Source of the DNA: a virus
Lineage: Duplodnaviria; Heunggongvirae; Uroviricota; Caudoviricetes
Virus record (IMG/VR): IMGVR_UViG_2909288124_000001
Reading direction: 5' to 3' (one strand)
Length of the DNA: 42,470 nt
The notes beneath the pieces were generated by a model. It was not told the DNA's origin. It ran no database searches and was given only the letters and a program-made list of their open reading frames with translations. Shown piece after piece: positions 2,728 to 30,860 of the stretch. How positions within the stretch are numbered: position 1 is the stretch's first letter; every line of letters starts with the position of its first letter. The translations under genes and the position numbers were made by a program.

Positions 2728-3300
2728 TTACATTTCAGGTTGCGTTATGACAGTCCCAACAGGGTGATAGCGGTAGATCGTTGACAGTCCAATATCATAG
2801 ATAATTGCCAGCCGCTTTCTGTCATACCCTTTCTGGAGCAATCTTGCGATCTGCTCATGCTGCTCCTTCGTCAGTTTCGGGCGACGTCCTCCAACTCTTC
2901 CTTGTGCTCGCGCAGCAGCCAGTCCAGCCAGCGTGCGCTCAACTATCAGTTCACGCTCCATTTCTGCCAGTGCACCCATCATATGAAAAAAGAACCTTCC
3001 CATCGGAGTGCTGGTATCGATTGAATCCGTCAGACTGCGAAAATTGACACCTTTTGCGCGTAGCTCTTCTGTGAGAGCAATGAGGTGTTTCATTCTTCTA
3101 CCCAACCGATCCAGCTTCCAGACCACCAATGTATCCCCTCTTTTAAGGCACTTTAAAGCGCGTTTCAGGCCTGGTCGTTCCGACTTGGTTCCGCTCATTT
3201 TGTCCTCAAAAATCTGTTCACATCCTGCGCACATTAATGCATTGCGTTGCAAATCTGTGTTTTGGTCATTTGTTGACACACGTATGTAGCCAATCAGCAT
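2728..3300 (-). CDS. gin: Serine DNA invertase (Gin/Cin/Pin/Hin family)
   Basis: From internal ATG at 3300 (RBS AAGGGAG upstream): MLIGYIRVSTNDQNTDLQRNAL...GDTLVVWKLDRLGR...ALAEMERELIVERT... closely matches Mu Gin as recalled; 190 aa; sits next to an invertible tail-fiber segment. Confidence 0.9.
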   Translation of the reverse strand: MLIGYIRVSTNDQNTDLQRNALMCAGCEQIFEDKMSGTKSERPGLKRALKCLKRGDTLVVWKLDRLGRRMKHLIALTEELRAKGVNFRSLTDSIDTSTPMGRFFFHMMGALAEMERELIVERTLAGLAAARAQGRVGGRRPKLTKEQHEQIARLLQKGYDRKRLAIIYDIGLSTIYRYHPVGTVITQPEM

Positions 3301-3354
3301 TAAAAATACTCCCTTTTGAGTGGTTAAAGTACTGAGATAATGTGGGGAGGATTT

Positions 3355-3380
3355 GAGAGATAAACGTTGGTTTGGGGGAA
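3355..3380. other. gix/hix-like recombination site A (GAGAGATAAACG-TT-GGTTTGGGGGAA)
   Basis: Hin/Gin-type architecture (AAAC-NN-GGTTT core); homology with the fiber-gene site starts exactly at the central TT; crossover would keep the fiber reading frame. Confidence 0.5.
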
Positions 3381-3800
3381 GGCTCGGCGCTGCCCGTTGG
3401 TGTACCTGTTCCGTGGCCCACTGCCACACCGCCAGCAGGCTGGTTAAAGTGCGACGGGCGCGCCTTTACAAAAGAACAATATCCTGTTCTGGCCAGAGTC
3501 TACCCGACCCTCCGTCTTCCCGATTTACGCGGTGAGTTTATCCGTGGATGGGACGACGGGCGAAAAGTGGATACAGGGCGCGATCTGCTTTCACGGCAGG
3601 ATGGTACAAGTTTTTCTCATTACGCAGGTAATTTTGACATTGGGTCTGGTCATTCAATCAATAACTATGACCAAATCGTTGACAACCAACCTGGATTCTC
3701 CCGTTTTTCATTTGCAGGTCCTTCGCTAGGCGATGGGGTTAATTATGTGACCATTCGTCCCCGTAACATTGCGTTTAATTACATCGTAAGGGCGGCATAG
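3369..3800 (+). CDS. Silent alternative tail-fiber C-terminal cassette A (collar-like domain plus variable tip; no start codon of its own)
   Basis: Encodes LGEGSALPVGVPVPWPTATPPAGWLKCDGRAFTKEQYPVLARVYPTLRLPDLRGEFIRGWDDGRKVDTGR... ending RPRNIAFNYIVRAA; in frame from crossover site A. Confidence 0.7.
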   Translation, partial: GLGEGSALPVGVPVPWPTATPPAGWLKCDGRAFTKEQYPVLARVYPTLRLPDLRGEFIRGWDDGRKVDTGRDLLSRQDGTSFSHYAGNFDIGSGHSINNYDQIVDNQPGFSRFSFAGPSLGDGVNYVTIRPRNIAFNYIVRAA

Positions 3801-3819
3801 AAACGTTGGTTTAGGAGAA
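3794..3819. other. gix/hix-like recombination site B (CATAGAAACG-TT-GGTTTAGGAGAA)
   Basis: Second direct copy of the site, 17/19 identical to site A core; followed by a second about 215-bp copy of the collar-domain repeat. Confidence 0.45.
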
Positions 3820-4323
3820 GGCTCGGCGCTACCCGTTGGTGTACCTGTTCCGTGGCCCACCGCCACACCGCCAGCAGGCTGGTTAAAGTGCGACGGGCGC
3901 GCCTTTACAAAAGAACAATATCCTGTTCTGGCCAGAGTCTACCCGACCCTCCGTCTTCCCGATTTACGCGGTGAGTTTATCCGTGGATGGGACGACGGGC
4001 GCAAAGTTGATACAGGACGTAAGTTGCTGTCCGCACAAGGGGCAACGCTGTTAAGAACAGCAATGCTGGATTATTATAACCAGGACACTACGGGAACCTC
4101 GGGGATAGTCGGCATGGGATTCAACAATGAAGATTCCATTACAGACCTTCGTGAGGGCAGCTTTAAAATGCCGGACGGGACAACATTCAGTAATCCTGCC
4201 ATGGCAATGTCAGACAATGGTATGCAGGCTACTATTCTGACCTCTATCAGAAGCGGGTATGCGAAGGGTATCACTGTCAGACCCCGTAGCATTGCACTTA
4301 ATTACATTGTGAGGGCAGTTTAA
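3808..4323 (+). CDS. Silent alternative tail-fiber C-terminal cassette B (collar-like domain plus distinct variable tip)
   Basis: Open frame from site B: same collar-domain sequence then ...KLLSAQGATLLRTAMLDYYNQDTTG...GITVRPRSIALNYIVRAV; immediately followed by a tail fiber assembly gene. Confidence 0.7.
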   Translation, partial: GLGEGSALPVGVPVPWPTATPPAGWLKCDGRAFTKEQYPVLARVYPTLRLPDLRGEFIRGWDDGRKVDTGRKLLSAQGATLLRTAMLDYYNQDTTGTSGIVGMGFNNEDSITDLREGSFKMPDGTTFSNPAMAMSDNGMQATILTSIRSGYAKGITVRPRSIALNYIVRAV

Positions 4324-4937
4324 TGAGTAACACTGCAGTTCTGGATGAAAACGGTATCGCCACTGTAGCGGGCGATATCACTGTATATCACTATGACGAG
4401 GAAACCCGGGAATACACCTCATCCTCTGTGGAGTATCTCGCCCTTGGGGTGGGTACTCCGGCACATTCGTGCGCCGATGCACCGCCGGAAGCAATTTCGG
4501 GTTACGTGGTTTGCCGGACTGCCACGCTGAACGGGTGGGAGCATGTGCCTGATCACCGCGGCGAGACGGTATACAGCACGGAGAACGGTAACCCCGTTCT
4601 GATTACCCAACCGGGTGATTACCCGGCGGACACCACCACAAAACAGCCAGCCACGCCATGGGATACCTGGAACGGTGAGGCGTGGGTAACCGATACTGAA
4701 CGGCAGCGAGCCGCAGAACTGGAGGTTGCCAGACAGCAACGCCAGCAACGGGTGAAACAGGCGATGGCGTCCGTCGATCTTATCAACCTCAAACTGCGTG
4801 CTGGTCGCAGTCTGAAACCAGAAGAAACGGCAAAACTGAACGCCGTGCTGGATTATATCGACGAGCTGAACGCACTGGATATCAGCAAGGCACCTGAAAT
4901 CAGCTGGCCGGAAGCGCCACTGGCGCTTGCCGGCTGA
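4323..4937 (+). CDS. Tail fiber assembly protein (Tfa / Mu U / P2 G family)
   Basis: 204 aa; motifs WEHVPDHRGETVY, TWNGEAWVTDTE, APEISWPEAP parallel lambda Tfa as recalled; located inside the invertible segment, currently opposite in orientation to the expressed fiber gene. Confidence 0.85.
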   Translation: MSNTAVLDENGIATVAGDITVYHYDEETREYTSSSVEYLALGVGTPAHSCADAPPEAISGYVVCRTATLNGWEHVPDHRGETVYSTENGNPVLITQPGDYPADTTTKQPATPWDTWNGEAWVTDTERQRAAELEVARQQRQQRVKQAMASVDLINLKLRAGRSLKPEETAKLNAVLDYIDELNALDISKAPEISWPEAPLALAG

Positions 4938-4943
4938 ACGGTA

Positions 4944-5894
4944 TCACGCCGCCCTCACGATATAGTTAAATGCGATATTGCGGGGGCGAGCTGATACATA
5001 AGCCCACCAGTCATATCTTTGTGCACCTTTAGAGGATGCATCAAATATCCACTTTTTGCCATTTAAGACCCCCAGTTGATTAGAGGTTAAAGCGTCACCA
5101 AATCCGTATTGTGTAGAGCCGAGCGAACTGATATCTCCGGTATCATTATCATCAAAACCGGATACGATAGTCCCTTCCTGAAATGAAAGTAGCGCACGCC
5201 CGGTATCAACCTTGCGACCACCGTCCCATCCACGGATAAACTCACCGCGCAAATCGGGAAGACGGAGGGTCGGGTAGACTCTGGCCAGAACAGGATATTG
5301 TTCTTTGGTGAACGTAGCTCCGTTGCACTGTAACCAGCCTGCTGGCGGTGTGGCGGTGGGCCATGGAACCGGTACACCAACAGGCAATGCAGAGCCTTCC
5401 CCCAAACCAAGGTAATTGAGGACATCTTTTATACTGCCCTTAGCGATAATAGCGCGACCAATAGCTGTAAGGGTTGCCAGCGCTGCGCGGTCTGCTCCGG
5501 TAAAATAAGGCAACCGATCTGCTGCAGTGGCAAGTCCTGCCAGAGCAGTGAGCGTGGCATCTGCCGGTTGTTTTCCGTTTGCCAGGTCGTATGCAGCCTT
5601 GACCGCTTTTGGTGTGGCGGCCAGCGTTTCAGAGGTGCTGTTGGTGGCACTGCTCAGTTGGGTGAACCCCTTAGCTGTCAGTGTCGCGTCCGGGTGGTTA
5701 CGGGAACGTACGTGTTCAGCCAGTGACTGTGCGGCTTCCTCCGTTTTCTTCTTCAGCCATTTCGTCCTGTTTGCCAGTTGCCGGGGGGCTCGATTTGATA
5801 TCCCGTCTGCGCCACCCAGAACCGGATCTGATGTCTCCAGTTGATAGATATTTTCTTCCCACTTTTCTGTTTCATTCAGGTTTCCCATAATCAA
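4944..5894 (-). CDS. Tail fiber protein (constant N-terminal part plus currently joined variable C-terminal cassette F)
   Basis: 316 aa; last gene of the minus-strand tail operon; contains an inverted copy of the collar-domain repeat and ends in RPRNIAFNYIVRAA. Confidence 0.85.
   Translation of the reverse strand: MIMGNLNETEKWEENIYQLETSDPVLGGADGISNRAPRQLANRTKWLKKKTEEAAQSLAEHVRSRNHPDATLTAKGFTQLSSATNSTSETLAATPKAVKAAYDLANGKQPADATLTALAGLATAADRLPYFTGADRAALATLTAIGRAIIAKGSIKDVLNYLGLGEGSALPVGVPVPWPTATPPAGWLQCNGATFTKEQYPVLARVYPTLRLPDLRGEFIRGWDGGRKVDTGRALLSFQEGTIVSGFDDNDTGDISSLGSTQYGFGDALTSNQLGVLNGKKWIFDASSKGAQRYDWWAYVSARPRNIAFNYIVRAA
5397..5422. other. gix/hix-like recombination site F inside the tail fiber gene (inverted relative to sites A and B)
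   Basis: Fiber-strand sequence CTCAATTACC-TT-GGTTTGGGGGAAGG; right half-site and downstream identical to site A, left half-site unrelated; TT falls on codon positions 2-3 of Leu in ...NYLGLGEG... Confidence 0.5.
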
Positions 5895-7957: not shown

Positions 7958-8554
7958 TCAGTGGGAGTGGTGGCTGGAGTTTTCGCCATCAGACAACATA
8001 CTGCCCGTGGCATGGGCATTCCCTTTAATCTCGATATTGCCATGGATGGTCGCGGTAACACCTTCACCACCAGAACCCGCCATGCCTCCTTCGTAAATCA
8101 GCTTCCCCCTGACACGCAGATCTCCGGTAAGTTCGGTTTCCGGTGCGTCAATCGTGGCTTTCTGTGTTTTCAATACCACATCAGCACCACACTCAATGAC
8201 AATATGCTCAATGCCGCCCCGGATGATCAGAGTGTGCGTCTTCCGGTTGTAGCTGTACTCTGCACCATCAGCAAACCGGGTTCCCCGGATATTTTTGTCA
8301 CTGAACGGTGGTTTATCGACGTCTGAATACACCGCGCCCAGAATAACACCATCCTCGCCGTTGGCATCGAGCAGCACCTCAACCTGCTCCCCCACGTCAG
8401 GGAGCCAGTAATCTTTGTTATCCTGGGTATTGCGCTGCAGCACGTTAAGCCAGTTTGTGCGCAGGTTATCGCATTCAGGCAGACGAACGCGGGCCTGAAC
8501 CCTGTCGGCATCAACGGCACTGACCGTACCGACCTGACGAGTGACACCAGTCAT
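7958..8554 (-). CDS. Baseplate spike protein V-like (P2 gpV / Mu gp45)
   Basis: 198 aa, Gly-rich C-terminus, follows gpD-like gene. Confidence 0.75.
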   Translation of the reverse strand: MTGVTRQVGTVSAVDADRVQARVRLPECDNLRTNWLNVLQRNTQDNKDYWLPDVGEQVEVLLDANGEDGVILGAVYSDVDKPPFSDKNIRGTRFADGAEYSYNRKTHTLIIRGGIEHIVIECGADVVLKTQKATIDAPETELTGDLRVRGKLIYEGGMAGSGGEGVTATIHGNIEIKGNAHATGSMLSDGENSSHHSH

Positions 8555-9723
8555 TTTTTCTTCTCTCTTATTACTGTGGACGTGCTGCCGTCCGGTTTAT
8601 AGATGGTCAGCGTCCGGGTTTTGCCGGTTTTTTTACCTTTCTTCGCCTTGCCCTGTGTGACCGGCCCCCGTGCCACTTCCAGCTCTGTGGTGTAGCCGCT
8701 GTTACGCTCAAACGCATGGAGGGCAGTGGTTATGAGCCATGGCCCGGATAACTGCCCAAAACCCACCAGTTCAATTTTGTTGCCTGCTGTCAGTTGAGGT
8801 GTTCCCGTCAGCGTCAGGGAGCCGTTCTGCTGGTATTCGTTATGTCTGGCCAGTGCTGAATCCGCTTTAATCCGGGCACTGTCCGGGTCGCTGACGCGGC
8901 TGTTAACTTTAAGTGAGTCAGCGCTGGTAACCTTACCACCTTTGAGCTTTTTGTCGCTTTCACGGGTACCACCATCAGCTTCGTAGACGATCAGTTTTTT
9001 ACTGCTGCTTTTCTGGTGTTTTACCTTTGCAGATTTATAGACCCGGTTGATGGTGTCACGCAGGGAAAAGCGGGCCACATCCTGCGGTTTTAACTGCCTG
9101 ACCGGCTCCTGACTGCGCAGTGTGGCCAGATGAGAAAAAATCAGCTGGTCACTGACCACTTTCACTGCATAACCATACTCGCTGGCCAGCCGGCGCAGAA
9201 AACCCACGTCGGTTTCAGCATACTGGGTCACCCGGTCGATTCTGATGGACTCAATGCTGCCCACCAGTTTCAGTCGGTGCTTTCTGGCAATCCGCCCCGC
9301 AACAGCTGCCAGCGTGGTGTTCTCAAAACCACGACTGGTTTTAGTCCGCAGGGCACTGTTAACCGAGGTGGCCACCCCACGGATAGAAACAACGGAAGCG
9401 GGCGAACTCACTTCGATCTCGTCTATAGAGAACGTACCGCAGGACAGCAGCTTCTCGCCCTGATAGCCCATTTTCAGCGTCAGCGTGTCACCCTTGCCCG
9501 GATACCATTTATCCAGCCAGCGGCCATCGGTGTCGTCCAGCTCCACCTCAATGGTATCGGACTCATTTTTGATGTTATCGCTCCAGGTCACACGGGTGAC
9601 ATAAGGCGCGATATCAGAGGTGATGTTTTTCTGCAGATACCACAGAGTGAACACCGGTGTCAGCACATCGCTGACGCCGGTTAACGCTGATGTGACTTGC
9701 GCAGTGCTGTTTATCTCAGCCAT
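8551..9723 (-). CDS. Tail/baseplate hub protein, P2 gpD-like (late control D family)
   Basis: 390 aa with Lys-rich C-terminus; conserved position after tape measure/U/X genes. Confidence 0.75.
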   Translation of the reverse strand: MAEINSTAQVTSALTGVSDVLTPVFTLWYLQKNITSDIAPYVTRVTWSDNIKNESDTIEVELDDTDGRWLDKWYPGKGDTLTLKMGYQGEKLLSCGTFSIDEIEVSSPASVVSIRGVATSVNSALRTKTSRGFENTTLAAVAGRIARKHRLKLVGSIESIRIDRVTQYAETDVGFLRRLASEYGYAVKVVSDQLIFSHLATLRSQEPVRQLKPQDVARFSLRDTINRVYKSAKVKHQKSSSKKLIVYEADGGTRESDKKLKGGKVTSADSLKVNSRVSDPDSARIKADSALARHNEYQQNGSLTLTGTPQLTAGNKIELVGFGQLSGPWLITTALHAFERNSGYTTELEVARGPVTQGKAKKGKKTGKTRTLTIYKPDGSTSTVIREKKK

Positions 9724-9926
9724 GGGGCAATATCCTCTTCTGTACGGGCTTCTTCAGCCTCAATCACCGGGATCAGTAACAACAGCCCGGAGGGCAGCAC
9801 CGGCGTGATGGCCACGTGCGGATTGGCGGCAATAATCCGGGGATAGCCCAGCGGGTCACCGTAGTACTGCCATGCCAGCGAATCCCAGCGCTCTCCGTCA
9901 CGGGTAACATGTTCAAGAAACATCAC
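9711..9926 (-). CDS. Phage tail protein X-like (small LysM-like tail protein)
   Basis: 71 aa ORF between U-like and D-like genes with start/stop overlaps on both sides. Confidence 0.55.
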   Translation of the reverse strand: MMFLEHVTRDGERWDSLAWQYYGDPLGYPRIIAANPHVAITPVLPSGLLLLIPVIEAEEARTEEDIAPWLR

Positions 9927-10807
9927 ACACTCCTCGTCAGTATTCTGGCGGCCATTGCACTTAATCCCGGAGACATGCGGTTGAATGCTGTGCCGACGGC
10001 GTTAAGCTGCCCGGAAACGGTATCCAGAGCACCTGCAATATTTCTTTTGTCCACACCACTCAGCGCAGACTGTGCCTGCTGTACATACGTGGCTGCTTCG
10101 CTGGCTGTTCTGGCCAGACTGATGGCATCGGGCATGGATTCAGAGAGTGCGTTAAACGCCGGAACACTTTTCCCCAGAGCCCCGGAGATATTACCCAGTC
10201 CGCTCATCAGCCCCGGCACACGGGTCAGTGCGACAACGGGGTTATCCTTCATTTTCTGTGTCACCCGAACGGCGCTGATAGTGGTCTGGAGTACAGACTG
10301 CGCCTGTTTCGCATAGTTGACGCCGTTGCGGATGAACTGCGCCACCCCTGAAGGTGAAGGTATGGCACCGGAGACCGCCCCGACACCCGGGAGCTTCGTG
10401 CGTATTGCCGGTGGTTGCAGAGGATTTTTCGGGTCACCGGTGTATTCCCGGAGAGACACGGTGGCACTGACAGCCAGCACGTTGCCGGTACTGTCAGTCT
10501 GCTCGCTGGTTGCAGTCACATCGGTGATCACGAACCAGCCGCGATAGTCACCGTTGCCGAAGACCAGCGCCAGTGCCTGATGGGCTTTCATGGCTGTTCG
10601 CAGTCTCGCCAGCTCCACATCGGGTACACAATAATGCTGATGGAAAACCAGAGTTATCTGGATTTCGTCCAGCCTGTCGCCGACGAACTGCAGGCCAGGC
10701 TTACCCCCGATGCGGGCATGCTCCGCATAATCGACGCCGAACGTGGCCTCGAAGCCGTCCCAGTAGGTAATCAGCTCAAACTCAATATCACCCAGTACGG
10801 CAAACAT
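9923..10807 (-). CDS. Tail protein, gpU-like / Mu N (DNA circulation)-like
   Basis: 294 aa ORF immediately downstream of the tape measure gene; assignment by position and N-terminal character. Confidence 0.5.
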   Translation of the reverse strand: MFAVLGDIEFELITYWDGFEATFGVDYAEHARIGGKPGLQFVGDRLDEIQITLVFHQHYCVPDVELARLRTAMKAHQALALVFGNGDYRGWFVITDVTATSEQTDSTGNVLAVSATVSLREYTGDPKNPLQPPAIRTKLPGVGAVSGAIPSPSGVAQFIRNGVNYAKQAQSVLQTTISAVRVTQKMKDNPVVALTRVPGLMSGLGNISGALGKSVPAFNALSESMPDAISLARTASEAATYVQQAQSALSGVDKRNIAGALDTVSGQLNAVGTAFNRMSPGLSAMAARILTRSV

Positions 10808-13758
10808 CAGCGGTACTCCTTACGTTGTTTCTGAGCCAGCAGACGCTCCAGCATTTTTTCCAGCTCATGCAGGCTCATATTCAGGGCGCCAGTCAGTCCG
10901 GCAGGCGCTGTGGTTTCCCTGCCATTGAGGAAAAACTGAGGATTAAAGCTGACCTGGATACCACCAGACGTTCCACCGCCGGTTGCAGCTGCACCACGGT
11001 CTGAATATCCGGCAGCCATGATTTCAGGCGAGGGGATACGGGGAACATCCGGTGTCATCTCATTTGCCAGACGTTGCCCTGGTAAAATCGATGCCCGGGT
11101 GGAGAGCGGGATAGCGGGCATGGAAGACAAACTATTGATTACGGCTCCGATCGCATTTTTAGCAGACGACATAAACCCGTTGATATCGGGCAACGGCATA
11201 CTGAAGCGAACACCTGAAGTGTTATCCCGTATTTCTGGCCCCTGAATGCTCACGGGCATTCTGGGGAGCAGTTCACTGGCCATTCGCTGCCCGGCCAGAG
11301 CTGCAAGCGGAGTGGTCCGCTGCAGGCCAATGGCGGCCCCCTGCGCGATATTGTCACCAAAGCCCATAAACACGCGGCTCGGCGAATGAATACCCAGCTT
11401 TTCACTGAACCAGCCACTGATGCTGTCACCCATTCCGGTTACACTGGATTTGAGCGACTCCCATTTGTTTTTGATACCGTTAATCAGACCGTCGACAAGA
11501 TGGCCACCGAAGTCGGTGAACTTTGCCGGCAGATCAACACCAAGATATTTCAGCGCAGCTGCAAAGGCTTTATAGAGCAGACCTGCCGGCGACCAGTTAA
11601 TCAGCAGCTTACCAGTTCCCGCGATACCGCCGTTAAAGGCTTCCTGAATGTCAGCCCAGCACTGTTTAAACCAGCTACTGATGCTGTCACCCATTCCGGT
11701 TACACTGGATTTGAGCGACCCCCATTTGTTTTTGATACCGTTAATCAGACCGTCGATAAGATGGCCACCGAAGTCGGTGAACTTTGCCGGCAGAGCAACG
11801 CCGAAATATTTCAGCGCAGCCGCAAAGGCTTTATAGAGCAGGCCTGCCGGCGACCAGTTAATCAGTAACTTACCAATTCCCACAATGCCGCCGTTAAAGG
11901 CTTCCTGAATGTCTGCCCAGCGCTGTTTAAACCAGCCACTGACTGCCCCCCAGTTGCGGTAGATAAGGTAAGCTGCTGCCGCGACAGCGGTGATAACGAG
12001 ACCGATGGGATTCATCATCAGCGCACGTCCAATCCAGAGAACAGCACGTCCGGCGAGCATAATTCCGCGAACCAGCCCCCCGGAGAGCACGCCACTCAGT
12101 GTTCTGGCTCCTCTGGCGACGGCGCTAAATCCGGTCACCAGCCAGCGGAGCTTACCGCCTTGCCCCAGTGCGAGCGACAGACGAAGCCAGTTGGCCCGAA
12201 GTAAAACAGCATTTTTCCAGACACTTACAAAGGGGGAAATAAGGAGATTCAGCCCCAGTTTGAGACCAACAGTCGCTATCTTAATCGCAAGGAGCGCACT
12301 GATGAGCTTAAAAGCCCCACTGACAAATTGCGGGTGAGTCGCTACCCAGTGTTTTGCCCCCTGAATGAGTGGAAGCAGTTCCTGAGTCAGAGAAATAAAA
12401 GATGGAGCTAATTGATCGCCCAGCGTAATTGCCAGATCGCGACTGCTGACCATAAGTGTTTTAGTGGCTTCAAGGGGAGATTTCAGCCGCTGATCATAAG
12501 CACTGGCAAGCAAATCGTTATCCGCAGCCCTGAGAGCACCGGCACGGATCTCTCGATATCTGTCCATGTTGGCCAGCATCGGGCGGATAAATGCCATGAC
12601 CTGCATATCCGCGAACATATCGCCCAGACCAAAGTTTTTCGCCAGAGCCTGAAGTGCCTCATCTCTTGCCGTATCATTCTTTATTTTCATGGCTGATTTG
12701 AAGCCGGCCAGCGCTTCGGGGCTTTTGGCATTGAGGTAACGTTCTATAACACTCAACATCCCTTCAATCGGAGAGATCCCCGCAGCTTTATAACTCGCAA
12801 TAGATCCCTGCAAATCAATACCCAGATCAGCAAACTGTTTCTGAGTATCGCGGGCAAAAATTTTGGTAAGAAAGTTTTTAAAATTATTGGCTGCTTCGTC
12901 GGTGGAACCTGCACCGATTTTTGCTATCTGGAGACTGGCCCCGATTTCAGCAACAGCCTCTTTTCCACTGGCAATACCCGCCATCATTGGGGCCAGGGAC
13001 TGCATCCACTTGACCTGATCCGGGATTTCAAATGACCCCTGGTCACCGGCATAAGCCATAATATTCTGAACGGCACCAAAATCTCTGGCCGCACCTTTCA
13101 GGGAGTTTTGCCAGACTGCGGCCACTTTTGCCCAGTCCTGAGCAGACGTGCGTGTTGCCGTTGCCGCGCGGGCAATATCCGGCATCAGAAAACCGATATC
13201 TGACACATTATCAATATTGTCGCTGATGAGTGAACCCACCGCCTCCTGCAGCTCATCCTGATACTGATTGTATTTAAGCGCCCAGCCTTTTATCTGTCCG
13301 GCAAGTCCATCCCGCGTTTTATTGTCATATTTTGCGGTGATCGACATATCAATCATTTTGTCCTGAAAAGACATGGACTGCTGAACGGCAGGGGAAACCG
13401 TATGATAAACAGTCTGTGCCATGCCATACGCTTCAATCCCCTGACCATACAGCGCCATGCGGTTAGCTTTCAGCGCATCACTGGTAGCGGATGCCGCTGA
13501 CAGACGGCGCTGCTGGCGCTCAATTTGCTCCATGGTGCGGCTTACCCGCAGCAGCTCGCTGTTGAGATACTGCATCCGGGAAGAACCCAGTTGACCATAA
13601 CGTTCTGTTGCACGGGTTAAAGCGTTCTGACGTTCCTGCAGGCGGCGTGAGGTATCGCTCAGGGAATCAAGCGCACGGCGGGTACCGCTCATTGCAGAAC
13701 GGAATGTGCTGCCAATCATCCCGCCGATAACAACGCCGACTGAAAACTGTCCAGACAT
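10807..13758 (-). CDS. Tail tape measure protein
   Basis: 983 aa; ATG at 13758 with GGAGGT RBS; follows frameshifted chaperone gene; hydrophobic and coiled-coil segments; carries an internal in-frame 261-bp tandem duplication. Confidence 0.85.
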   Translation of the reverse strand: MSGQFSVGVVIGGMIGSTFRSAMSGTRRALDSLSDTSRRLQERQNALTRATERYGQLGSSRMQYLNSELLRVSRTMEQIERQQRRLSAASATSDALKANRMALYGQGIEAYGMAQTVYHTVSPAVQQSMSFQDKMIDMSITAKYDNKTRDGLAGQIKGWALKYNQYQDELQEAVGSLISDNIDNVSDIGFLMPDIARAATATRTSAQDWAKVAAVWQNSLKGAARDFGAVQNIMAYAGDQGSFEIPDQVKWMQSLAPMMAGIASGKEAVAEIGASLQIAKIGAGSTDEAANNFKNFLTKIFARDTQKQFADLGIDLQGSIASYKAAGISPIEGMLSVIERYLNAKSPEALAGFKSAMKIKNDTARDEALQALAKNFGLGDMFADMQVMAFIRPMLANMDRYREIRAGALRAADNDLLASAYDQRLKSPLEATKTLMVSSRDLAITLGDQLAPSFISLTQELLPLIQGAKHWVATHPQFVSGAFKLISALLAIKIATVGLKLGLNLLISPFVSVWKNAVLLRANWLRLSLALGQGGKLRWLVTGFSAVARGARTLSGVLSGGLVRGIMLAGRAVLWIGRALMMNPIGLVITAVAAAAYLIYRNWGAVSGWFKQRWADIQEAFNGGIVGIGKLLINWSPAGLLYKAFAAALKYFGVALPAKFTDFGGHLIDGLINGIKNKWGSLKSSVTGMGDSISSWFKQCWADIQEAFNGGIAGTGKLLINWSPAGLLYKAFAAALKYLGVDLPAKFTDFGGHLVDGLINGIKNKWESLKSSVTGMGDSISGWFSEKLGIHSPSRVFMGFGDNIAQGAAIGLQRTTPLAALAGQRMASELLPRMPVSIQGPEIRDNTSGVRFSMPLPDINGFMSSAKNAIGAVINSLSSMPAIPLSTRASILPGQRLANEMTPDVPRIPSPEIMAAGYSDRGAAATGGGTSGGIQVSFNPQFFLNGRETTAPAGLTGALNMSLHELEKMLERLLAQKQRKEYR
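11410..11932. repeat. In-frame tandem duplication (2 x 261 bp) within the tape measure gene
   Basis: 11410..11670 and 11671..11931 near-identical; encodes duplicated 87-aa block WFKQ(R/C)WADIQEAFNGGI...GMGDSIS. Confidence 0.8.
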
Positions 13759-13833: not shown

Positions 13834-13930
13834 CTATGATTTGTCGCCGTACTCGCTTTTGATTTGCTCTTCAGCCTGCTCCAGCCACATCTCCAGATCG
13901 TCAGTATCGAGGGCATCAATCTCCCCCGGC
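13834..13930 (-). CDS. Frameshift extension of the tail assembly chaperone (E'/GT-like), reached by a +1 (equivalently -2) shift on a GGGGG run
   Basis: ORF 13834..14091 overlaps the chaperone 3' end in the +1 frame and ends 49 bp before the tape measure start; G5 run at 13923..13927 lies just before the zero-frame stop. Confidence 0.5.
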
Positions 13931-14251
13931 TGAAACCGGAACCATCTCGCCAGCAGCCCCTGCGCCTGCGTCAGCGCCCTGGTTGCTCTCACCCATCCCC
14001 GTGATGAGCTGAAATCGTTTCTGTAACTGCAGGTAATCAGCCAGATCCATATTGTCGAGATCTTCCGGGAGAAGACCAGTACTGCGGGCAATCAGCGGTT
14101 CGTCCCAGTCTGCCGGGTTTTTGCTGATTTTGCGCACCTGCTTCAGGTCTTTTACCGTCAGGCGTTTCAGTTCAACCAGCTCAATTCTGGTGCCTGCAGC
14201 AGTGGTGAAGGGATAAGACAATTTAAAAGTATCGGATGGGGTCTGTGACAT
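13916..14251 (-). CDS. Tail assembly chaperone (P2 gpE / lambda gpG analogue), zero-frame product
   Basis: 111 aa; ATG at 14251 with AGGAG RBS; sits between tail tube and tape measure genes; overlapped by a second ORF in another frame. Confidence 0.7.
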   Translation of the reverse strand: MSQTPSDTFKLSYPFTTAAGTRIELVELKRLTVKDLKQVRKISKNPADWDEPLIARSTGLLPEDLDNMDLADYLQLQKRFQLITGMGESNQGADAGAGAAGEMVPVSAGGD

Positions 14252-14632: not shown

Positions 14633-15154
14633 TCAGCCCCCGATATTGATACGGTAGTCAGTCAGTTGATCAACACCGCCGACCCGGAAGATGTTGGCCA
14701 GATAGTCCAGTTGCAGCAGCTCTTCACCATCCAGTACCTGTCTGATATACGTGCAGGTGAAGCTACTGGAGAACTCGGCGTTCTCGTGCTGTTTGAACGT
14801 CCCCAGCGGGTTCTTCTTGAACATAATCGTCAGGAAGGTGACCAGCGGGATTTCGTCAATCAGCCCCTGCGAGCTGTAGCGCTGGACGCTGGAACGACAC
14901 TGCAGTGCCAGCGACCTGTACGGGTTCGCGGCAGACAGCATCGCATCGCGGTAAAAGCTGTTCCATTTGATTTCGCCTTCCAGTTTGTCAAAACCAGCCG
15001 GGAGTTCCACCTTACCCACCATCCCCAGCGCCTTGTGTTCCTGCATAATCATGGAGACATCGGGGAGTTTAACTTCCTCAGCCCGTCCCAGCAGGTTAGT
15101 ACCATCCAGATAGATGTTGGCATTCGTGATGCGGTTTATCTCAATCTTTGACAT
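14633..15154 (-). CDS. Tail tube protein (P2 FII / Mu M-like)
   Basis: 173 aa ORF directly downstream of the sheath gene (ATGA start/stop overlap at 15154). Confidence 0.85.
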   Translation of the reverse strand: MSKIEINRITNANIYLDGTNLLGRAEEVKLPDVSMIMQEHKALGMVGKVELPAGFDKLEGEIKWNSFYRDAMLSAANPYRSLALQCRSSVQRYSSQGLIDEIPLVTFLTIMFKKNPLGTFKQHENAEFSSSFTCTYIRQVLDGEELLQLDYLANIFRVGGVDQLTDYRINIGG

Positions 15155-16581
15155 CAGTTGCCCCCTTTCAGGGTTAACAGGTATTCCGAGGTGATCTCAG
15201 TCTCAAACGTCAGTCGCTCCAGCGGCGGTGGTGGCGTATATTTGTAGCTCAGCAACAGGTGCCCGGCGGCCAGCTCCGTCTCCGGATTGCGGGCCGGATC
15301 AAACCAGCAACGGAAGCCCAGTACCGCACCATCACCAGTCATTTTGCGACCGTAGGCGTTGACCGACTCCGTCAGTGCATCAATCAGCGCCTGAGTAATC
15401 GGCATGTCGATGTACTGCTGGCTGAAATAACGAATGGACTCGTTGATCACATCACCGGTGCGGCGAACGTTCTCAAAGTTACGCATATGGGTGACCGTTG
15501 GCCATGCTGCCGTCCGGTTACCCCACAGACGAAGGCCGCTGCCGTAACTGCTGAATACCGTGGTGATCCCCTGTTCGTTAAGCAGGTTCACCTCACTCTG
15601 CGGGTCATCAATCATCGCGGACAGCTGGCGCTCCACGCCGGTGATCCCCAGAATCTCCTGATTGGAGGATGACCACCAGTAGCCCTTGTCCAGATCGACT
15701 CTGGCACGCAGACCTGCTGCACGCTGGCTGAGCGGCTCCAGACGCTCTGTGTTTGTCACCGGGTCATATACCTTCACATGCGGATAGCACAGACGGACGC
15801 GGTCGGAGCTGGTATTGAAGTTGATGGTGCCTTCCGGGCCACGACCTGCCAGAGCCTGTGCAAAGGTGGTACCGACAGGCGCATCAATGTAGGTTACCGC
15901 GCCCAGCTTCTCTGCCATGGCGATAAGCTCAACTGCGACACTCTTCTGGGTGCAGAACACCGGCGCAATCAGAATTTTGGCGAAATAGCCGTACAGGTTG
16001 AAGCTGTCGTTAAGCAGCTTCATGCCGGTTCGGTTTCCGGCGCTGTTCACCCCGCCGATGATGTCCGCCGCAGTCACCTTCGACGGGTCCGCGTACTCAT
16101 AGCTCACCTTCACGCTGCCACCGGCCTCAATAGCCTTGCCCAGGTTCGTGAGCACACCCGCCTGCGCATCAACACGGTAGTCCGTGTTCGCCGTGTGGGT
16201 GGTGCTGCCTTCACTGTTTTTCACCACCACATTAGCGACAACCGGATGCGCCAGTCTGGCCTGCCCTGTCGATTTGTCAAAGGTAACCACCTCATCCTCG
16301 ATCGCCGTTTTATGTTTCGCCGGGTCGAGGACGTTAATGACCAGAACGGTGCCTGCACCATGGTCATAAATCGCATCCAGCGCCTGCGGAATGGTAAAGC
16401 CGGTGAACTGGCTGCCAAATGCCGCTGCGTCTTTCTCAGACAGGCACTGTACCAGCGTATTGACATCCCCCATCGGGGCGGTACCAATCAGGCCAATAAC
16501 GGCAGATTTCACCGTTTTAACCGGGCGGGCACCGTTTTCCACCTCAATGGTTTCGGGACCATGCAGATAGTTAGCTGCCAT
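15154..16581 (-). CDS. Contractile tail sheath protein (P2 FI / Mu L-like)
   Basis: 475 aa; ATG at 16581 with GGAGGA RBS; conserved sheath-tube gene pair. Confidence 0.9.
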   Translation of the reverse strand: MAANYLHGPETIEVENGARPVKTVKSAVIGLIGTAPMGDVNTLVQCLSEKDAAAFGSQFTGFTIPQALDAIYDHGAGTVLVINVLDPAKHKTAIEDEVVTFDKSTGQARLAHPVVANVVVKNSEGSTTHTANTDYRVDAQAGVLTNLGKAIEAGGSVKVSYEYADPSKVTAADIIGGVNSAGNRTGMKLLNDSFNLYGYFAKILIAPVFCTQKSVAVELIAMAEKLGAVTYIDAPVGTTFAQALAGRGPEGTINFNTSSDRVRLCYPHVKVYDPVTNTERLEPLSQRAAGLRARVDLDKGYWWSSSNQEILGITGVERQLSAMIDDPQSEVNLLNEQGITTVFSSYGSGLRLWGNRTAAWPTVTHMRNFENVRRTGDVINESIRYFSQQYIDMPITQALIDALTESVNAYGRKMTGDGAVLGFRCWFDPARNPETELAAGHLLLSYKYTPPPPLERLTFETEITSEYLLTLKGGN

Positions 16582-27884: not shown

Positions 27885-28655
27885 ATGAAAATGCAGACAT
27901 TACCCATCGTTCCATGGATTGGTGGCAAACGCCGCCTTGCAAAACACATCCTGCCGCTGTTTCCGGCGCATGAATGTTATGTGGAGCCGTTTTGTGGGGC
28001 AGCAGCGCTCTATTTTCTTAAGGTACCCGGCAAGATCGAAGTCATTAATGATATCAACGGTGAACTGGTGAACCTGTATCGGGTAGTAAAACATCATCTG
28101 GAAGAATTTGTGCGCCAGTTCAAATGGGCGCTGGTCAGCCGGCAGATCTACAAATGGCTGCAGATCACCCCGGAAGAAACACTGACGGATATCCAGCGTG
28201 CAGCACGGTTCTACTACCTTCAGAAGCAGGCGTTTGGAGGCAAGGTGGCGGAGCACAGCTTTGGTACCTCCACCATATCCCCGCCACGCTTCAACCTGCT
28301 GCGTATTGAAGAAGAACTGTCAGCGGCACACCTGCGGCTTTCCAGAACGGTCATAGAACACATGGACTGGCAACAGTGCATAGAACGATATGATCGCCCG
28401 CATACGTTGTTCTACTGTGACCCTCCATACTGGGGAACGGAAGGTTATGGTGTGGAGTTCGGACTAGAAAATTATGATCATATGGCAGATTTAGCACGCA
28501 GGATCAAAGGGAAGATGATTATATCGGTGAACGATATCCCGGAAATGCGGCAGGCATTCAACGGTCTAAATATTCAGTCGGTTGATATCAGCTACAACCT
28601 CAAGATCACTGGCAAATCCAGTTGCAAGAAGGAACTCATTATCCTCAACTTTTGA
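27885..28655 (+). CDS. DNA adenine methyltransferase (Dam family, N6-adenine)
   Basis: 256 aa; motif I FCGAAALYF and motif IV DPPY (FYCDPPYWG); N-terminal WIGGKRRL typical of Dam-family enzymes. Confidence 0.85.
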   Translation: MKMQTLPIVPWIGGKRRLAKHILPLFPAHECYVEPFCGAAALYFLKVPGKIEVINDINGELVNLYRVVKHHLEEFVRQFKWALVSRQIYKWLQITPEETLTDIQRAARFYYLQKQAFGGKVAEHSFGTSTISPPRFNLLRIEEELSAAHLRLSRTVIEHMDWQQCIERYDRPHTLFYCDPPYWGTEGYGVEFGLENYDHMADLARRIKGKMIISVNDIPEMRQAFNGLNIQSVDISYNLKITGKSSCKKELIILNF

Positions 28656-29850
28656 CCGAATAGTAAGACTTCATGCAGTGAATCAAGTACTGCATGAAGT
28701 CAAGGGCTGGTTTTGTGTACCAAAAATAAACAGTGATAGCGGTAATAATTCCCATAACTAGAACACCACGTATAATCCAGAACGTACGTTTCTGCGTGTC
28801 TAGTCGCGCAGAAATACTGCTAAATACACCAGCCACGTCATCTTTAATGAAGGAATATTCCTTATTAATCTGTTTTTCTTTGTATTCAATTTCTTCGCCT
28901 AAGGCCTTTATAGATTGCATCTGGTTCGAAAGTGCCAGCCAGATTAACGTTGCAGCAAAAATGCATCCCAGAAGAATTATTGTGTTTGTTATCCCTTGGC
29001 CTGACCATTTCGTAGCCACTTTGAATTGGGTAGCTACGATAACAGAGGCAACAGGAATGCCAAGTATATGGTTCTGGATATCTGAAAACGCTTTGTGGAT
29101 TTTACCCATTTCTTCGACTTTTGCAGCACGCAGTTGATCCATTACTTTGTCATAAGAGAATCCAGAAGAGTAGATACGATACCCTTTCAGAAACTTTTCA
29201 TGCAGACGCTGAATATTGTCCAGTAAATAAGCGAATACTAGAGGTGAATCAATTCCATCACTAACTGCTTGGATACTTTCAATCAGAATATCTAGCTTCT
29301 GATCCTTATGGGTATCATCATTGAAACAAGCTATAAGGTTATCAAGATACTCTCTTTGCAAATTTTGTACATTTTCTGCAGCGAAGTGCGGTAATAGCTT
29401 GATAACTTCTTTTTTCAGAAAAACTAACTGACAAGTTGAGTTATCAAAGTAGGCCGCGGCCTCTTTTAGCAGGTTAACGAACTCGAGAATCTTCCGGTAG
29501 TTGCTGATGAAAACGGGGATATCTTCATCATCATTACGAAACTTTGTTTCTAGGATGAAGTAATTAGCTGGCTCAAGGCACTGATGCTTTGGAGCATTTA
29601 GCAATTTTTCATGGGTGGAAAACACAAGTCCCAGTCCACTCCGTGGTGACGTCACACGTAGGATGATCGTGTTACCTGGAGCGATAGTGCCTGTATCAAT
29701 AGAAAGACCATATTCACGAGGATCATCAAGCAAAGTATCAACCAGATCACAATCGGACTGATCTAAGAGCAACAGCGAACCGACACGAAACCCCTCTTGG
29801 AATTCCATACGACGATACAGAGCTGTCAGCATCTCAAATGAAATCGCCAC
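28645..29850 (-). CDS. Hypothetical protein with soluble N-terminal domain and two C-terminal transmembrane helices (candidate effector of a defence/exclusion cassette)
   Basis: 401 aa; predicted TM segments ITNTIILLGCIFAATLIWLALS and FWIIRGVLVMGIITAITVYFWY; AT-rich; 2-bp gap to upstream gene. Confidence 0.6.
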   Translation of the reverse strand: MAISFEMLTALYRRMEFQEGFRVGSLLLLDQSDCDLVDTLLDDPREYGLSIDTGTIAPGNTIILRVTSPRSGLGLVFSTHEKLLNAPKHQCLEPANYFILETKFRNDDEDIPVFISNYRKILEFVNLLKEAAAYFDNSTCQLVFLKKEVIKLLPHFAAENVQNLQREYLDNLIACFNDDTHKDQKLDILIESIQAVSDGIDSPLVFAYLLDNIQRLHEKFLKGYRIYSSGFSYDKVMDQLRAAKVEEMGKIHKAFSDIQNHILGIPVASVIVATQFKVATKWSGQGITNTIILLGCIFAATLIWLALSNQMQSIKALGEEIEYKEKQINKEYSFIKDDVAGVFSSISARLDTQKRTFWIIRGVLVMGIITAITVYFWYTKPALDFMQYLIHCMKSYYSVKS

Positions 29851-29852
29851 GA

Positions 29853-30860
29853 TTAAACCTCAGTCATCCACATTTCCCTAAATTCTTCAGGTACATTACG
29901 TAGGGTGATAATATTTGTTTCCGGATCATAATCAATATAGCCTTCAGTTTTCCCTTCCCGGTCAAACTTAAGTTCCCAATATTTAGACTTGCCTTTAAAA
30001 GATACCAGAGCCCGAATGACTCGACCATCAGGAACGAAGCCATCCGATAACTCCAACTCTTCAGCAGCAAGTTTACCAGATAACTCCTCGGGAGCCTGGG
30101 GCCAAATGGCATTAACAAGGGTTTCAAGACTAAGTGGTTCACCAGCCTTACTTAGTGCATGTAAGTGTTCAAACGCACTCTTAAGAAATGCATCTTTTTC
30201 AGCGCCGTCAAGTCCTTTTTCTGCCGCAAATGCTTTTAAAACGTCACGTAACTTTTCAGACTCTCGTTTGGCGATTAAGACATCATTACAGCCGAGGAAC
30301 TGTTTAAAATAGTTTGAAACATTACCTTGCCCCTTAAGAAAACTGATATAGCGCTCTGCGCCACTTTCCCACGCGGTTAAGTCAATGCGCCCAGCCATAC
30401 GCAGCTTAGCAATATCAAGATAGGTACTATCTTGGATGTTAAAATCATCTGTGACAGTGGATCCAATGGTAGCGCTTACAATAGCTATCAACAGGTGTTC
30501 ATTGTGTCCTATCACGATATTTGCAAAAAGAACATAACCACCAGTAGCCATGTTTTCTCGCTGAGAACGTTCCGTCAGGTGATGCATCATTCGGCAGGAA
30601 CTTTGGTAGAAATCATCAACACCTTCGAGAAAGTCCCCAGCCATTCGTTCCATAGGATAGTTATCCGTATCGCCTTCAAAATAGCCATAACCTTTACCTG
30701 TGCGTCCTGCATATTTTGCACAAATATCGTTTATAAGGCGCTGGGAGGCTTCAGTAACTAGACCTTCTTCAGGACTCAATCTCTCAGAAGCGTCTCCATT
30801 TTGTTGTTTGTCTAAAATGTGAACTACAACGTGTTTAACTTCAATGGTCTGCTCAGACAT
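29853..30860 (-). CDS. NA37 (NdpA/YejK)-like nucleoid-associated-protein homologue (candidate sensor of a defence/exclusion cassette)
   Basis: 335 aa (same length as E. coli YejK); stretches GGYVLF, GRIDLTAWES, RYISFLKG, FLG resemble YejK as recalled from memory; ATG with AAGGTGGA RBS; directly downstream of repressor gene. Confidence 0.55.
   Translation of the reverse strand: MSEQTIEVKHVVVHILDKQQNGDASERLSPEEGLVTEASQRLINDICAKYAGRTGKGYGYFEGDTDNYPMERMAGDFLEGVDDFYQSSCRMMHHLTERSQRENMATGGYVLFANIVIGHNEHLLIAIVSATIGSTVTDDFNIQDSTYLDIAKLRMAGRIDLTAWESGAERYISFLKGQGNVSNYFKQFLGCNDVLIAKRESEKLRDVLKAFAAEKGLDGAEKDAFLKSAFEHLHALSKAGEPLSLETLVNAIWPQAPEELSGKLAAEELELSDGFVPDGRVIRALVSFKGKSKYWELKFDREGKTEGYIDYDPETNIITLRNVPEEFREMWMTEV

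Follow-up and report, generated by a model that had tools for sequence, protein, structure and literature searches.

A copy-number-variable 87-residue repeat in the tape measure gene of BcepMu-like Escherichia coli prophages

What does a long tandem repeat inside a phage tape measure gene signify, and how stable is it? The question is raised by IMG/VR record IMGVR_UViG_2909288124_000001, a 42,470-nucleotide (nt) stretch of caudoviricete DNA, hereafter the window, in which the gene for a tape measure protein (TMP) of 983 amino acids (aa) contains a repeated 261-bp unit. A first-pass annotation made from the letters alone had described the repeat as a recent in-frame duplication that would lengthen the tail and be a hotspot for copy-number change. 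Here, we show that the unit is present once, twice or three times in otherwise very similar genes of complete Escherichia coli genomes, and that the units of the one- and three-copy alleles are chimeric. We consider it highly probable that the locus is a translated, copy-number-variable TMP repeat in which unequal recombination generates alleles of 896, 983 and 1070 aa, with an expected effect on tail length.

The repeat array and its copy number

Tandem Repeats Finder reported a sole array in the window (11408-11942; period 261, 2.0 copies, 93% matches, 0% indels, score 951), equal to 2.05 units of 261 bp. An exact-seed repeat finder placed direct copies at 11408-11668 and 11669-11929 with 93% identity, and pairwise alignment of the two matched 243 of 261 nt with 18 mismatches and no gaps (93.1% DNA identity). 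The tandem repeat is real, and a match of such length and quality cannot have arisen by chance. It had been placed at 11410-11670 and 11671-11931, which is the right repeat shifted by 2 nt, an offset that is immaterial because the array is tandem. The repeat is also in frame, as had been proposed, and encodes two consecutive 87-aa blocks of the 983-aa open reading frame (ORF), units A and B (Table 1). Calling the copies near-identical goes too far, however, given the 18 nt differences and a protein identity of 79 of 87 residues; 16 codons differ, half of them synonymously (8) and half nonsynonymously (8). Nei-Gojobori (NG86) estimates of nonsynonymous and synonymous divergence between A and B (dN 0.041, dS 0.19, dN/dS 0.22) indicate that both copies are under purifying selection. 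A third copy was said to begin over about 15 bp; an extra partial copy does exist but is 13 nt long (11930-11942). It is a copy of the direct repeat TCAGTGGCTGGTT, which explains both this third start and the additional 13 nt counted by Tandem Repeats Finder. The identical 13-mer forms the end of unit B (11408-11420), and the end of unit A (11669-11681) has it with one mismatch. An antisense ORF over the repeat (11386-11868, plus strand, 160 aa) was set aside as a shadow ORF; it has no NCBIfam match and its length would shift with copy number.

The TMP gene is carried by 635 of 5426 complete E. coli genomes (roughly one in nine), with sequence type 131 (ST131) and strain 83972 among the carriers, and the gene in the window is 100% identical to that of E. 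coli strain N21. In other complete E. coli genomes the two-unit gene aligns as single ungapped 2952-nt BLAST pieces at 99.1-99.6% identity. Comparing repeat copy number across related prophages, the check suggested with the first-pass annotation, uncovers one-, two- and three-unit alleles in complete E. coli genomes. Among the best 120 homologous proteins, the full-length ones have sizes of 896 aa (26 clusters), 983 aa (43) and 1070 aa (17), which are the one-, two- and three-unit classes. Each class is represented by intact genes in complete genomes: 2691 nt in MLI121, UPEC129, F1140, TUM14759 and AVS0947, 2952 nt in N21 and an O25b:H4 ST131 strain, and 3213 nt in 10034292-3, A1.S1.65, SCU-105 and AHB1. 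The alleles differ by whole units in genes that are otherwise near-identical. No four-unit allele was present among the top-scoring proteins, where it would rank above the three-unit ones.

To estimate allele frequencies, we took two systematic samples of 60 records along the BLAST ranking of the ~633-635 matching complete E. coli genomes. The first contained 41 two-unit, 11 three-unit and 2 one-unit genes and the second 40, 14 and 1, the rest of both being a more distant one-unit type or fragments. About two in three of the ~630 complete E. coli carriers have the two-copy form. These figures are frequencies and not event counts, since many of the genomes are clonal (ST131). The one-unit allele of the MLI121 type is shared by 13 complete genomes; Polish and Chinese strains have one identical 3213-nt three-unit allele, which about 62 genomes match at 99% identity or more.

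Several deposited records of this gene are irregular. In Escherichia phage PhiKM (PQ738613, 3001-5866) the TMP is split in two at the 261-bp repeat, with the comment 'coding region disrupted by sequencing gap'. The RefSeq records NZ_CP146591 (900-4112) and NZ_CP159118 (639-3851) hold identical intact 3213-nt ORFs, of which one is annotated as an intact 1070-aa protein and the other as two partial pseudogenes, and the intact three-unit ORF of NZ_OZ547150 (600-3812) is labelled 'missing C-terminus'. The RefSeq annotation pipeline appears to be confused by the extra repeat unit. The asymptomatic-bacteriuria strain 83972 (NZ_CP058220, 900-4114) is a different case: close to its 5' end, the 3215-nt three-unit TMP gene has a genuine frameshift, which probably inactivates the tail gene of this prophage, and the annotation lists two ORFs.

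Chimeric units and the origin of the duplication

We typed every unit at the 18 nt sites that separate A from B. The one-unit alleles are chimeras with an A-type prefix and a B-type suffix, and they have three distinct breakpoints, at unit nt 86-107, 208-252 and 6-14/86. The allele of MLI121 and UPEC129 reads AAAAAAAAA followed by BBBBBBBBB, a clean switch from nine A to nine B states; that of F1140 has 16 A-type sites and then BB, and that of TUM14759 and AVS0947 has one A and then 17 B. The three-unit alleles begin with an A-type and end with a B-type unit, and three different architectures were found: [A][B6:A12][B] in A1.S1.65 and 10034292-3, the colon marking the breakpoint, [A'][B8:A10][B] in AHB1, and [A'][A'][B] in 83972 and SCU-105. 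The polarity is reciprocal, in that contraction gives an A-prefix/B-suffix unit and expansion a middle unit with a B prefix and an A suffix, and a protein-level survey of the chimeras agrees with the nucleotide typing. In the two-unit allele of ST131, unit 1 has a prefix resembling B, which we read as further evidence for exchange between units. Judged by these junctions, the one- and three-unit alleles are shown to be reciprocal products of unequal exchange between misaligned units or of template switching. The breakpoints are several and different, so the copy-number events are recurrent, and the three allele classes and reciprocal chimeric units in complete E. coli genomes confirm the suggested hotspot of copy-number change.

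A single unit is found in more distant TMPs of 821-825 aa, those of E. coli GABEEC10 and IAL7250 and of Klebsiella phage KP12. The outgroup unit differs from A or B by 28-35 nt, compared with 18 nt between A and B, and it interleaves A and B states along its length; hence one unit is ancestral and the MLI121-type allele is a recombinant. That the MLI121-type allele itself preserves the ancestral state was considered and rejected, its clean nine-by-nine chimera marking a secondary contraction. By these comparisons the duplication is later than the split from the 821-825-aa lineages. It also predates the divergence of its carriers, because [A][B] is common to alleles that differ elsewhere in the gene. 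Whether it is recent, as proposed, depends on the yardstick: it is much younger than the module duplications in distant TMPs, whose copies are 41-67% identical in protein, but its own copies are 6.9% apart (dS 0.19) and are older than the split of the carriers.

The founding duplication could have been an illegitimate recombination or replication slippage between two ~13-nt TCAGTGGCTGGTT repeats, which would bracket the ancestral unit exactly 261 nt apart. An imperfect 13-nt direct repeat pair also flanks the single unit in the outgroups, and the ~13-nt repeat is a plausible microhomology substrate for seeding the first duplication. After two units existed, unequal homologous exchange or template switching gave one- and three-unit alleles repeatedly, and the outcome is an E. 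coli prophage population with the allelic series of 896, 983 and 1070 aa.

A recombination signal also lies next to the array. Over nt 1500-1800 of the TMP gene (window about 11960-12260, aa ~500-600), the window departs from the ST131 allele by up to 37 differences per 100 nt, the remainder of the gene being at most 3% divergent. The patch falls within the hydrophobic region immediately before the repeat, and by this contrast it is mosaic and was brought in by recombination.

The helical module, tail length and competing explanations

A full-library search with the 87-aa unit returned 655 representative proteins at E <=0.001. In the best 150 of these 655, one matching stretch was found in 105 proteins, two in 32, three in 10 and four in 3, and the stretches in distant proteins are spaced by about 76-91 aa or are partial units. 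Of 13 proteins with several units, 9 have units more alike among themselves (41-67% identity) than to the unit in the window. The module was thus multiplied independently, or homogenised, in several lineages, since units most resemble partners in their own protein; the E. coli duplication, with 79 of 87 residues identical, is by sequence identity the youngest seen. The module has the signature ...NWSPxGLFYxAFA...LPxKFTxFG...GWF, and its conserved W, S, P, G and F columns are near-invariant in an alignment of 50 distant homologues. It is placed after two hydrophobic segments and before a GIHSPSR motif, of which the S, P and S are near-invariant in the same alignment.

An AlphaFold2 model of aa 560-830, built on the 50 homologues, is helical apart from short loops (mean predicted local distance difference test score, pLDDT, 78; predicted template modelling score, pTM, 0.34). 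Helices of 42-50 residues span the A/B junction and run from unit B to GIHSPSR, and the modelled segment is long, mostly alpha-helical and non-globular. The repeat unit is predicted on this basis to be an all-helical 87-residue module. No Pfam or NCBIfam model covers it, a phmmer search of PDB sequences found no related solved structure, and Foldseek of the model against the PDB gave nothing meaningful (best E = 9). Half-unit matches spaced 42-50 aa in distant proteins raised the option of two half-repeats within the unit; it was dropped, the profile-profile (hhalign) probability being only ~4%. The unit does not resemble the 11- or 18-aa repeats marked by aromatic residues that are found in other TMPs: its period is 87 aa, and its aromatic residues are irregularly spaced (positions 4, 11, 25, 32, 35, 41, 42, 50, 53, 69, 86 and 87). 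The strongly conserved positions suggest that the module is more than a passive spacer, and it may also have a specific interaction role. Downstream of GIHSPSR, a 71-aa segment (aa 823-893, window 11080-11292, minus strand) is missing from the 821-825-aa outgroup TMPs. Its initial ~20 residues (GQRMASELLPRMPVSIQGPEI) are similar to the segment that follows it (GQRLANEMTPDVPRIPSPEI). The 71-aa segment could be the degenerate remnant of an older partial duplication, or recombination could have introduced it as an indel.

The expected consequence for the tail is drawn from other phages. In phage TP901-1 the tail is 118 nm long and drops to 65 nm when 347 TMP residues are deleted, a loss of 0.15 nm per residue; tail length there also depends on the hydrophobic region adjoining the repeats (PMC5099701). 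Tail length likewise follows TMP length, in proportion, for lambda gpH and for gp29 of the contractile-tailed T4 (Katsura & Hendrix 1984; Abuladze et al. 1994, as cited in PMC13585406). Given that TMP length sets tail length in these phages, we infer that an extra repeat unit lengthens the contractile tail here. At about 1.5 Å per residue, each 87-aa unit would add ~13 nm of tail, or about three tube/sheath rings by our own estimate, taking a rise of ~4 nm per ring.

Could the duplication in the window, and the series of one, two and three units in the databases, be repeats expanded or collapsed during assembly? A 261-bp repeat exceeds typical short reads, the PhiKM TMP is interrupted by a gap at this very place, and collapsing two units could give A/B chimeras like those in one-unit proteins of draft assemblies. 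Yet the two copies keep 18 fixed differences within an intact ORF, the 2952-nt gene recurs in many complete genomes of various strains and countries, and the one- and three-unit alleles of complete genomes have clean single breakpoints. The three-unit allele shared by Polish and Chinese strains and the one-unit allele common to 13 complete genomes speak against it in the same way. Because the copies have fixed differences and each allele recurs in complete genomes that are independent, an artefact is excluded, and we give it next to no residual probability. Import is another proposal, in which the second copy came from a diverged phage by a single unequal exchange and was not made in place. 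It would account for the 7% divergence of the copies without much elapsed time, and it would suit a mosaic TMP with a strongly divergent patch just upstream of the array and a B-like prefix in unit 1 of the ST131 allele. However, the 18 nt between A and B are fewer than the 28-35 nt that separate them from any sampled single-unit relative, and a single-unit donor like A or B alone was not found, the one-unit alleles seen being A/B chimeras; we regard import as improbable.

A third alternative concerns function. The 87-aa module might mainly be a chaperone- or tube-lumen-binding site, or a part of the membrane channel at infection, and not a ruler segment, in which case copy number would change that function more than tail length. 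This would fit motifs that are strongly kept across homologues of about 40-60% identity, the position beside hydrophobic segments and the conserved GIHSPSR motif, and the recurrence in 655 representative proteins. Set against this, the predicted structure is helical and non-globular, as in ruler regions; the TP901-1 repeat and the hydrophobic region next to it count toward length in proportion to the residues removed; and prophages that otherwise differ little tolerate one, two or three copies with the ORF intact. We judge a mainly functional module unlikely, though a shade less so than import. Some considerations do weigh against the preferred interpretation of a recombining, translated repeat that adds to tail length. 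The unit has conserved positions (NWSPxGLFYxAFA, LPxKFTxFG), and the tail-length effect is argued from other phages. Unequal crossing-over and replication slippage yield the same products and are indistinguishable by these data, and the microhomology origin is a plausible scenario only. Clonality (ST131) affects many of the E. coli genomes, which keeps the allele frequencies from being a tally of independent events. One-unit entries taken from short-read assemblies could in some cases be collapsed repeats, and the gap in PhiKM falls exactly at the repeat. There is, finally, a low probability, of the same order as for import, that the three alleles are a tail-length polymorphism kept by selection and not neutral repeat instability. 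Were it so, tail reach might, for instance, match the capsule or O-antigen thickness of host lineages, and the module would lengthen the tail in quanta, each copy adding an integral number of tube/sheath rings.

Prophage context and related systems

The repeat had been assigned to a tape measure gene, and this stands. On the minus strand, the protein matches Pfam PF10145 PhageMin_Tail (2e-20, 74 bits, cut-off 33.2) and NCBIfam TIGR01760 (1.5e-15, 57.1 bits, cut-off 28.8), both above the curated cut-offs of these TP901-family core profiles, and PHROG phrog_28, 'tail length tape measure protein' (2.4e-133). The tail module is of the P2/Mu contractile type and is ordered sheath, tube, DUF, gpE-like chaperone, TMP, gpU, gpX and gpD, which puts the TMP after the tail chaperone and before the baseplate/hub genes (Table 1). 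Elsewhere the window has genes for a portal of the Mu type, a transposase of the rve family and a MuB-like AAA ATPase. The nearest phage record is PhiKM, genus Bcepmuvirus, at 96.4% nucleotide identity. On these grounds the host element is a BcepMu-like transposable myovirus prophage of E. coli, and the repeat therefore sits in the TMP of such a prophage.

Table 1 Features of the tape measure gene and its surroundings in the window
Feature	Position	Strand	Details
Unit A, promoter-proximal, in-frame register	11668..11928	-	aa 611-697, KQRWADIQ...DSISSWF
Unit B, distal	11407..11667	-	aa 698-784, KQCWADIQ...DSISGWF; differs from A by 18 nt and 8 aa
13-nt direct repeat TCAGTGGCTGGTT	11930..11942	-	encodes S-G-W-F; immediately upstream of unit A
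Hydrophobic TMP region	11959..12330	-	aa 477-513 and 572-600; Kyte-Doolittle mean >=1.4 over 19 aa; directly upstream of the repeat
GIHSPSR motif	11374..11394	-	aa 789-795; conserved; starts five residues after unit B
TMP gene, 983 aa	10807..13758	-	ORF; PF10145, TIGR01760, phrog_28
gpE-like tail assembly chaperone gene	13916-14251		PF10109; upstream of TMP in the direction of transcription
Tube gene	14633-15154		upstream of TMP in the direction of transcription
Sheath gene	15154-16581		upstream of TMP in the direction of transcription
gpU gene	9923-10807		downstream of TMP
gpD gene	8551-9723		downstream of TMP, followed by spike and baseplate genes

Further features of the prophage were recorded. 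Two genes on the minus strand encode a serine invertase (Resolvase and HTH_7 domains; 2728-3429) and a tail fibre with Phage_fiber_2 and Collar domains (4944-5894); a tail-fibre assembly gene (4323-4937) and a Collar-domain ORF (3372-3800) are in the opposite orientation on the plus strand, and inverted repeats pair 3377-3607 with 5170-5400 (231 nt, 85%) and 3817-4031 with 5185-5399 (215 nt, 87%). From this arrangement, 2728-5894 resembles an invertible segment for tail fibres, of the Mu G-segment or multiple-inversion type. Beside the tail-fibre end of the prophage, positions 1-2600 hold mobile-element debris: an IS256-family (Transposase_mut) ORF (1-1191, plus), an rve integrase-core fragment (1219-1614, minus) and a fragment of a group II intron reverse transcriptase/maturase (1767-2600, minus). 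Inside the prophage, a 335-aa nucleoid-associated protein of the NA37/NdpA type (29853-30860, minus; PF04245, 1e-80) is adjoined by a 401-aa ORF (28645-29850) with no Pfam match.

A close precedent is the TMP of TP901-1 (Mahony et al. 2016, PMC5099701; Pedersen et al. 2000), in which the repeats are likewise in tandem just after a hydrophobic region. Deleting or adding them changes tail length in proportion, at the rate given above, and the authors proposed that the repeats ease natural gain and loss (PMC5099701). TP901-1, a siphovirus of a Gram-positive host, has 29 W/F-marked repeats of 11 or 18 aa, whereas the unit described here has 87 aa, irregular aromatic residues and one to three copies in a contractile-tailed Mu-like prophage, and its variants are natural alleles as opposed to engineered mutants. 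Belcaid, Bergeron & Poisson 2011 (PMC3271669) reported that prophage TMPs become longer or shorter in evolution as 11-aa units are duplicated in tandem or lost; these units likewise allow orthologues and paralogues to be compared in reconstructing the events. Those units are short and numerous; here there is one large module in one to three copies, and 18 diagnostic sites reveal directly where the recombinants switch from one unit type to the other. The lambda gpH and T4 gp29 cases rest on engineered deletions and duplications, as PMC13585406 cites them, and these proteins have no detectable sequence similarity to the module. PhiKM has the same gene in the same tail module, its record being the one split at the repeat. 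Our literature search returned nothing specific on PhiKM or on the TMPs of BcepMu-like E. coli prophages, and no paper describing this 87-aa repeat.

Gain and loss of TMP repeats is an established route to a change in tail length, and the present locus is a real but ordinary example of it. At a practical level, the repeat breaks phage assemblies, as in PhiKM, and yields inconsistent RefSeq calls, pseudogene or intact, for identical three-unit genes. The earlier evidence mostly comes from siphoviruses with engineered TMPs or concerns short repeats of 11 aa. The E. coli prophages offer a natural and readable series of one, two and three units in a contractile-tailed transposable phage, which could be used to obtain the ruler constant of a myovirus and to measure the rate of repeat instability.

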